Assembly: GCF_003018255.1 (NCBI RefSeq) | Contig: NZ_CP027440.1 | Direction: 5' to 3' (one strand) | Source: Escherichia coli | GTDB taxonomy: Bacteria > Pseudomonadota > Gammaproteobacteria > Enterobacterales > Enterobacteriaceae | Length of the DNA: 64,000 bases | In this document: positions 26,413-26,607 of the stretch, in pieces | Position numbering within the stretch: position 1 is the first letter of the stretch | Layout: the number at the start of each line of letters is the position of its first letter | Notes under the pieces: model-generated | Told to the model about the DNA's origin: nothing | What the model saw: only the letters and a program-made list of their open reading frames with translations | The model's database searches: none | Position numbers and translations under genes: made by a program

Positions 26413-26607
26413 TTATTCTACCTTTTCGGCTGTCTCTTCTCTCGTACTGTTTAAGTATTTGTTCCGCGCTTCAAGCAGTGCGTCTCTGTCCTGGCGAAAC
26501 GCCCGACAATAACGTTTCAAATGCAGGAAATAACCCACCACAACAAGAGCAATCAATACAATCCAGTACCAGGCGATAAACATCCTTTTACCCTTAATAT
26601 TTAACAA
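26413..26607 (-). CDS. small inner-membrane protein of unknown function
   Basis: 64 aa ORF with one N-terminal transmembrane helix (FIAWYWIVLIALVVVGYFL) then a charged tail; lies between zupT and ribB. Confidence 0.5.
   Translation of the reverse strand: MLNIKGKRMFIAWYWIVLIALVVVGYFLHLKRYCRAFRQDRDALLEARNKYLNSTREETAEKVE

Follow-up and report, generated by a model that had tools for sequence, protein, structure and literature searches.

Most of the small membrane proteins that have been characterised in E. coli bind larger inner-membrane proteins and tune them. The characterised small regulators with a single transmembrane (TM) segment include AcrZ-AcrB, MgtS-MgtA/PitA, MgrB-PhoQ, PmrR-LpxT, KdpF, and CydX. 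The feature described here lies in a 64,000-nucleotide stretch of E. coli DNA (the window), and we identify it with high confidence as yqiD (b4756), a gene that is transcribed independently and encodes a small inner-membrane protein of 56 residues. Like AcrZ, MgtS, MgrB, PmrR, KdpF, and CydX, YqiD is shorter than 60 residues and has one TM helix, in its case predicted to sit in the inner membrane. It has no sequence similarity to these proteins and no candidate partner in its operon and, unlike in the known regulators, its conserved part is a predicted cytoplasmic juxtamembrane helix and not the TM segment alone.

Annotation and start codon of yqiD

The mechanical ORF list gave a 64-residue ORF with a TTG start at this locus (26413..26607, minus strand; translation MLNIKGKRMFIAWYWIVLIALVVVGYFLHLKRYCRAFRQDRDALLEARNKYLNSTREETAEKVE), and the first-pass annotation had taken it for the gene of a small single-TM membrane protein between zupT and ribB. 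That description was borne out, and the gene is yqiD in RefSeq. The ORF of 64 codons likewise exists, but its start was wrong: the coding sequence begins at ATG 26583, not at TTG 26607, and the ORF is eight codons too long.

25582..26355, plus strand: zupT, a ZIP-family zinc transporter (RefSeq annotation), convergent with yqiD
26413..26583, minus strand: yqiD CDS, 56 codons plus stop; RefSeq CDS "protein YqiD" (WP_000469266.1) at equivalent coordinates
26584..26607, minus strand: 5' UTR with Shine-Dalgarno sequence, equal to the eight extra codons of the 64-residue ORF; indels break the TTG frame
26845-27498, minus strand: ribB, the other flank of yqiD in the window

A 601-bp query covering yqiD and its flanks indicated that the window DNA is 100% identical to strain JNE23-011, and in the 100%-identical record WP_000469266.1 maps to window positions 26413-26583, with the ATG start rather than the upstream TTG. 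A megablast search with 26300-26900 matched the locus in 5425 of 5426 complete E. coli genomes, and about 4,400 complete genomes carry the RefSeq label "protein YqiD" (gene yqiD). The translation from ATG 26583 agrees at every residue with the YqiD of Table 1 in PMC6001520. E. coli K-12 YqiD (b4756; WP_000469266.1) is the identical 56-residue protein, encoded on the same strand and likewise between zupT and ribB; the window comes from a different E. coli strain, with no difference in the protein.

The upstream region also argues for the shorter frame. A Shine-Dalgarno sequence, AAGGG (26591-26595), lies 7 nt upstream of ATG 26583, and both elements were conserved when 29 upstream regions were aligned. 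In several species, a 1-nt indel between AAGGGT and AAAAGGATG puts the upstream TTG out of frame with the ATG, which identifies the eight extra codons as 5' UTR.

The gene is thus already known: it has a name and a RefSeq annotation, and detection of its small protein product has been published. The epitope tagging and ribosome profiling that the first-pass annotation proposed as checks had in fact been published, both with positive outcomes (PMC6001520). Chromosomally SPA-tagged YqiD was detected by immunoblot in LB cultures of E. coli K-12 (VanOrsdel et al., 2018, Proteomics 18:1700064; PMC6001520), and YqiD was positive in a tetracycline ribosome-profiling screen (PMC6001520). It belongs to a set of 13 profiling-positive proteins, most of which the authors found at high levels (PMC6001520). 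Our literature search on E. coli yqiD returned this discovery paper and two incidental mentions, with no functional experiment among them; the locus id b4756 is also used in a 2026 paper, and matches to the name "yqiD" mostly concern the unrelated yqiD of B. subtilis, an ispA homologue. The surrounding 4 kb are overlapped by 42 ORFs of at least 30 residues in the mechanical list, so ORF length alone is not beyond chance, and it is conservation and the published protein detection, not length, that mark the yqiD ORF as real.

Conservation within Enterobacteriaceae

A word-seeded search recovered 108 homologues from Escherichia, E. albertii, Citrobacter, and Salmonella, some of them labelled DUF4051. 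This label is carried in UniRef/NCBI by Salmonella, Citrobacter, Kosakonia, and Phytobacter homologues with 37-80% identity to YqiD; a Pfam-A scan gave no DUF4051 match for YqiD or for the homologues so labelled in UniRef, the model being apparently absent and perhaps retired. An exhaustive profile search of 1.84 billion representatives yielded 25 hits at E <= 1e-3, which added only sequences labelled Enterobacter, Kosakonia, Phytobacter/Metakosakonia, and Atlantibacter, and nothing convincing beyond Enterobacteriaceae. Taking one genome per species, we collected 38 loci from Escherichia, Citrobacter, Salmonella, Intestinirhabdus, Enterobacter, Kosakonia, and Phytobacter.

Over codons 1-42, comparison of E. 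coli, Citrobacter, and Salmonella gave a core dN/dS of 0.03-0.06 (Nei-Gojobori), with dS saturated at 1.2-2.4, and third codon positions took 18-21 of the 27-31 substitutions. By these substitution patterns, the yqiD reading frame is under purifying selection in a subset of Enterobacteriaceae, which supports, and agrees with, the published synthesis of YqiD. The first-pass annotation had also named conservation as a check; the frame was kept under purifying selection across the seven genera, and the contrary outcome it had envisaged, a frame lost in relatives with no sign of translation, is not what was found.

A predicted single TM helix followed by a conserved juxtamembrane helix

The protein divides into three parts.

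Residues about 3-22: predicted TM helix (sequence prediction), with only 2-4 residues outside
Residues 23-40: conserved juxtamembrane segment KRYCRAFRQDRDALLEAR, predicted cytoplasmic
C-terminal to residue 40: variable acidic tail

The hydrophobic N-terminus noted at first pass was confirmed, with a 19-residue Kyte-Doolittle mean of 2.43 over residues 2-20. No charged residue precedes the helix, and 5 K/R but only 2 D/E fall within the next 15 residues. From the uncharged N-terminus and the five K/R that follow the helix, the positive-inside rule predicts a single-pass N-out/C-in protein with a cytoplasmic tail. By prediction, YqiD therefore has the hydrophobic segment and the charge bias of a small single-pass inner-membrane protein. 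The charged helical tail also held up: the tail in the ORF list reads exactly as quoted, and AlphaFold2, run on a 19-sequence alignment, modelled YqiD as one continuous helix from residue 3 to 55 at moderate confidence (mean pLDDT 71).

Conservation was concentrated next to the membrane. In the all-genera alignment M1, W5, A28, and R30 are invariant, and I3, R24, R33, and A35 nearly so. In the Escherichia, Citrobacter, Salmonella, and Enterobacter set, W5-Y-W, G17-Y18, H21, and K23-R-Y-C-R-A-F-R-Q-D-R-D-A-L-L-E-A-R40 are almost fixed. The near-invariant juxtamembrane motif is K/R-R-x-C-R/K-A-F/Y-R-Q-D-R-D-A-L-L, in which every third position is basic (Arg or Lys at 24, 27, 30, and 33), while the last ~15 residues vary freely in both sequence and length. 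Given the conserved juxtamembrane helix and the variable tail, the membrane-proximal, predicted cytoplasmic helix is presumably the functional core of YqiD.

Library searches did not place this architecture in a described family. The best hits, DUF2621 (PF11084) and NF038143 "HYxxLL", cover the TM segment plus the charged helix and fell far below their curated cut-offs (E = 8e-4, 19.8 against 27.7 bits, and E = 2e-3, 18.2 against 50 bits, respectively); both matches are most likely compositional. Matches to DUF4381 and DUF6526 were also sub-threshold and compositional. A profile search of the PDB for solved relatives returned only weak matches to UPF0335 helical proteins (best E = 0.016).

Small size, a hydrophobic N-terminal helix, and a charged tail also recall toxins of the Hok/Ldr/TisB type, and an Rz-like spanin in PHROGs matched YqiD below threshold (E = 0.13), which could be read in the same direction. 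YqiD would then be a small hydrophobic peptide, akin to type I toxins or to holins and spanins, whose expression harms the membrane. Several observations speak against this, and we regard it as extremely unlikely. Tagged YqiD is detectable in normally growing cells, and most of its profiling-positive set is present at high levels; the gene, neither mobile nor multi-copy, occurs once per genome, is inherited vertically, and keeps its synteny in 38 species; PADLOC gave no hit, and the PHROG matches are at chance level. A scan of the locus found no promoter-like site for an antisense RNA on the opposite strand, and the pairing of an antisense sRNA with tight repression that marks the toxin of a type I toxin-antitoxin system was not seen.

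An insulated transcription unit with a conserved upstream palindrome

Hairpins flank yqiD on both sides, as the first-pass annotation had noted, each with a 13-bp stem, and a conserved block precedes the gene.

26365..26395, no strand assigned: hairpin with a 13-bp GC-containing stem, within the 57 nt that separate the stop codons of yqiD and zupT
26584..26703, minus strand: conserved upstream block (promoter region and leader), from the alignment of 29 upstream regions
26687-26700, minus strand: palindrome ATGATCAAAATCAT, at the start of the conserved block
26696-26701, minus strand: sigma-70-like TATGAT, overlapping the palindrome
about 26782..26814, minus strand: ribB intrinsic terminator hairpin, a 13-bp stem followed by UUUUUAUUUU (U-run)

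The hairpin at 26365-26395 folds at -24.8 kcal/mol on the minus strand and -22.8 on the plus strand (z = -4.4 and -5.1), a consensus scan made a terminator-like call there on the minus strand, and it is likely a shared, bidirectional terminator of yqiD and zupT. The ribB terminator (-15.4 kcal/mol, z = -3.3) keeps transcription that reads through ribB from reaching yqiD. A terminator on each side and the conserved upstream block together argue that yqiD has its own transcription unit. Upstream of ribB, the window also holds an FMN riboswitch (RF00050, 120.9 bits; 27602-27750, minus strand), as expected for the locus.

The palindrome, ATGATC(A/G)AAATCAT, forms a sharp edge of conservation in 27 of the 29 upstream regions (Escherichia, Citrobacter, Salmonella, and Intestinirhabdus): from it, conservation runs through an AT-rich leader of ~100 nt to the Shine-Dalgarno sequence and ATG, and further upstream the sequences are unrelated. 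The leader is more conserved than the synonymous sites of the ORF. A single sigma-70-like site was found, TTGATA-18-TATGAT (26725..26696), with its -35 element in the non-conserved part. The conserved palindrome and leader point to regulated expression of yqiD, as read from the alignment. In a 2025 preprint (10.1101/2025.06.10.658842), yqiD is among four genes for which GWAS, a promoter model, and a GFP reporter agreed on how cis non-coding variants shifted expression.

Candidate readings of these elements were less productive. The palindrome core, TGAT-N4-ATCA, suggests an FNR box, which is only a lead: matches to TTGAT-N4-ATCAA with 2 mismatches occur 51 times in the window against 36 expected, near chance frequency. 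Comparison by eye with the Fur, Zur, ArcA, ArgR, NikR, and Cra consensus sequences gave no convincing fit, and a structured leader RNA was unconvincing (fold z = -2.0 only). A palindrome-like sequence, ATGATGATGATCATCAG, occurs between ygiD and zupT, a short way upstream of the latter (25518-25534); it has the TGATC/GATCA theme in common with the yqiD palindrome at a different spacing, which may be coincidence.

The convergent pairing of yqiD and zupT

The two genes converge and are not co-transcribed. At every one of the 38 species-level loci, zupT directly adjoins yqiD in convergent orientation, with the stop codons -18 to 74 nt apart, a striking adjacency that may nonetheless be inherited synteny within one family. 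The other flank is variable: ribB occupies it in 23 of the 38 loci, at 162-979 nt, an arylsulfotransferase (assT)-dsbL cluster lies upstream of yqiD in Salmonella and one Enterobacter locus, and a subset of E. coli has a chaperone-usher fimbrial operon there. Beyond zupT, the window continues with ygiD and dsbI; dsbL-dsbI, presumably with assT, adjoin ygiD in the window strain (about 24105-24605 and upstream; locus L001 1-806). The position of this dsbL-dsbI accessory segment relative to yqiD and zupT differs in Salmonella, Enterobacter, and a metagenomic locus (L011), in which ygiD-dsbI-dsbL separate zupT from yqiD.

Stop-codon spacing falls to between -18 and 34 nt in Kosakonia, Phytobacter, Enterobacter, and some Citrobacter. 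The tightest spacings (-18 to 22 nt) were seen in Phytobacter massiliensis (L048), L037, L052, L035, and other loci. A terminator cannot fit into a spacer shorter than about 35 nt, and in such loci the 3' ends of the two convergent mRNAs must therefore overlap. This geometry, along with the conservation of the leader, fits the idea that the ORF is incidental and that the transcript is what functions, either as a leader RNA or by acting on the 3' end of zupT through convergent antisense RNA or transcriptional interference. We consider this very improbable: in E. coli a strong hairpin stands between the two genes, dN/dS is 0.03-0.06 (with saturated dS), and the protein has been detected. Purifying selection and the detected protein make the ORF coding and exclude a transcript-only function as its sole role; the 3'-end overlap of zupT and yqiD may nonetheless matter in some genera.

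Alleles, loss, and a possible fusion of yqiD

Within E. coli, yqiD exists in two forms. A divergent allele, with about 77% DNA identity, occurs in 991 of the 5425 complete genomes (about 18%), where RefSeq labels it only "hypothetical protein". Its protein is 66% identical to the K-12 type with a dS of about 2, making it as divergent as that of Salmonella. In both divergent-allele loci that we inspected, E. coli EcPNK004 (L013; 9118-9288 and 9870-14844) and L006, a four-gene chaperone-usher fimbrial operon separates yqiD from ribB, and the divergent gene together with the operon looks like an imported haplotype.

In the bloodstream isolate E. coli FCI23 (L014, 4222-4919), IS1B occupies the expected place of yqiD and of the fimbrial operon's first half. 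At least one clinical E. coli has thus lost yqiD naturally to IS1, which makes the gene dispensable. A rearrangement of another kind was seen in a 2029-nt metagenomic Logan contig (SRR31245077; L053, 1499-1876), in which a 125-residue ORF joins ZupT residues 1-70 to a YqiD-like C-terminal part. A possible zupT 3' end lies just downstream on the opposite strand, in this one contig only; the structure would fit an inversion that broke both genes internally, or an assembly chimera.

A possible partner for YqiD

The closest described systems suggest how such a protein could act. YqiD would bind a larger inner-membrane protein through its TM segment and its conserved juxtamembrane helix, and the bound form would tune the activity or stability of that protein. 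We put forward this role of binder and modulator tentatively, by analogy, as a quite plausible one. The sole candidate partner that our data offer is ZupT, and the case for it is weak: it is the invariant convergent neighbour in 38 of 38 loci while the other flank changes. As it stands, we think the ZupT pairing doubtful.

ZIP transporters are distributed far more widely than yqiD, which is confined to a few genera. This wider range, together with the loss of yqiD to IS1, means that any role of YqiD at ZupT would be accessory and not that of an obligate subunit. One could picture YqiD as a lineage-restricted ZupT accessory or regulator whose Arg-rich, Cys-containing helix docks on the cytoplasmic face and tunes metal uptake, with a regulator binding the ATGATC-N3-ATCAT palindrome upstream of the gene; this more specific scheme is, in our judgement, rather unlikely. 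We know of no small-protein partner of a bacterial ZIP transporter.

The neighbouring zinc transporter also invites a different reading, in which YqiD is itself a membrane-tethered metal- or redox-sensing peptide acting through His21 and Cys26 (and Cys20 in Citrobacter and Salmonella), for example as a Zn-binding dimer beside ZupT. H21 and C26 are invariant or nearly so in the Escherichia, Citrobacter, Salmonella, and Enterobacter set, and 18 of the 19 aligned sequences, most of the distant homologues among them, have a Cys at position 26, or at 29 where 26 is lost. His21, however, is replaced by Y, A, or R in several distant homologues, one His and one Cys per chain form no recognised motif, and no Zur box was seen by eye in the upstream region. 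Sensing of this kind appears improbable.

Significance of yqiD

What gives yqiD its value is that it encodes a small membrane protein still awaiting characterisation. For functional work on it, the present analysis supplies the start codon, the division into core motif and variable tail, a predicted topology, the family range, the pairing with zupT, the upstream palindrome and leader, and two alleles, which constitute a natural polymorphism within E. coli that is usable for comparison.
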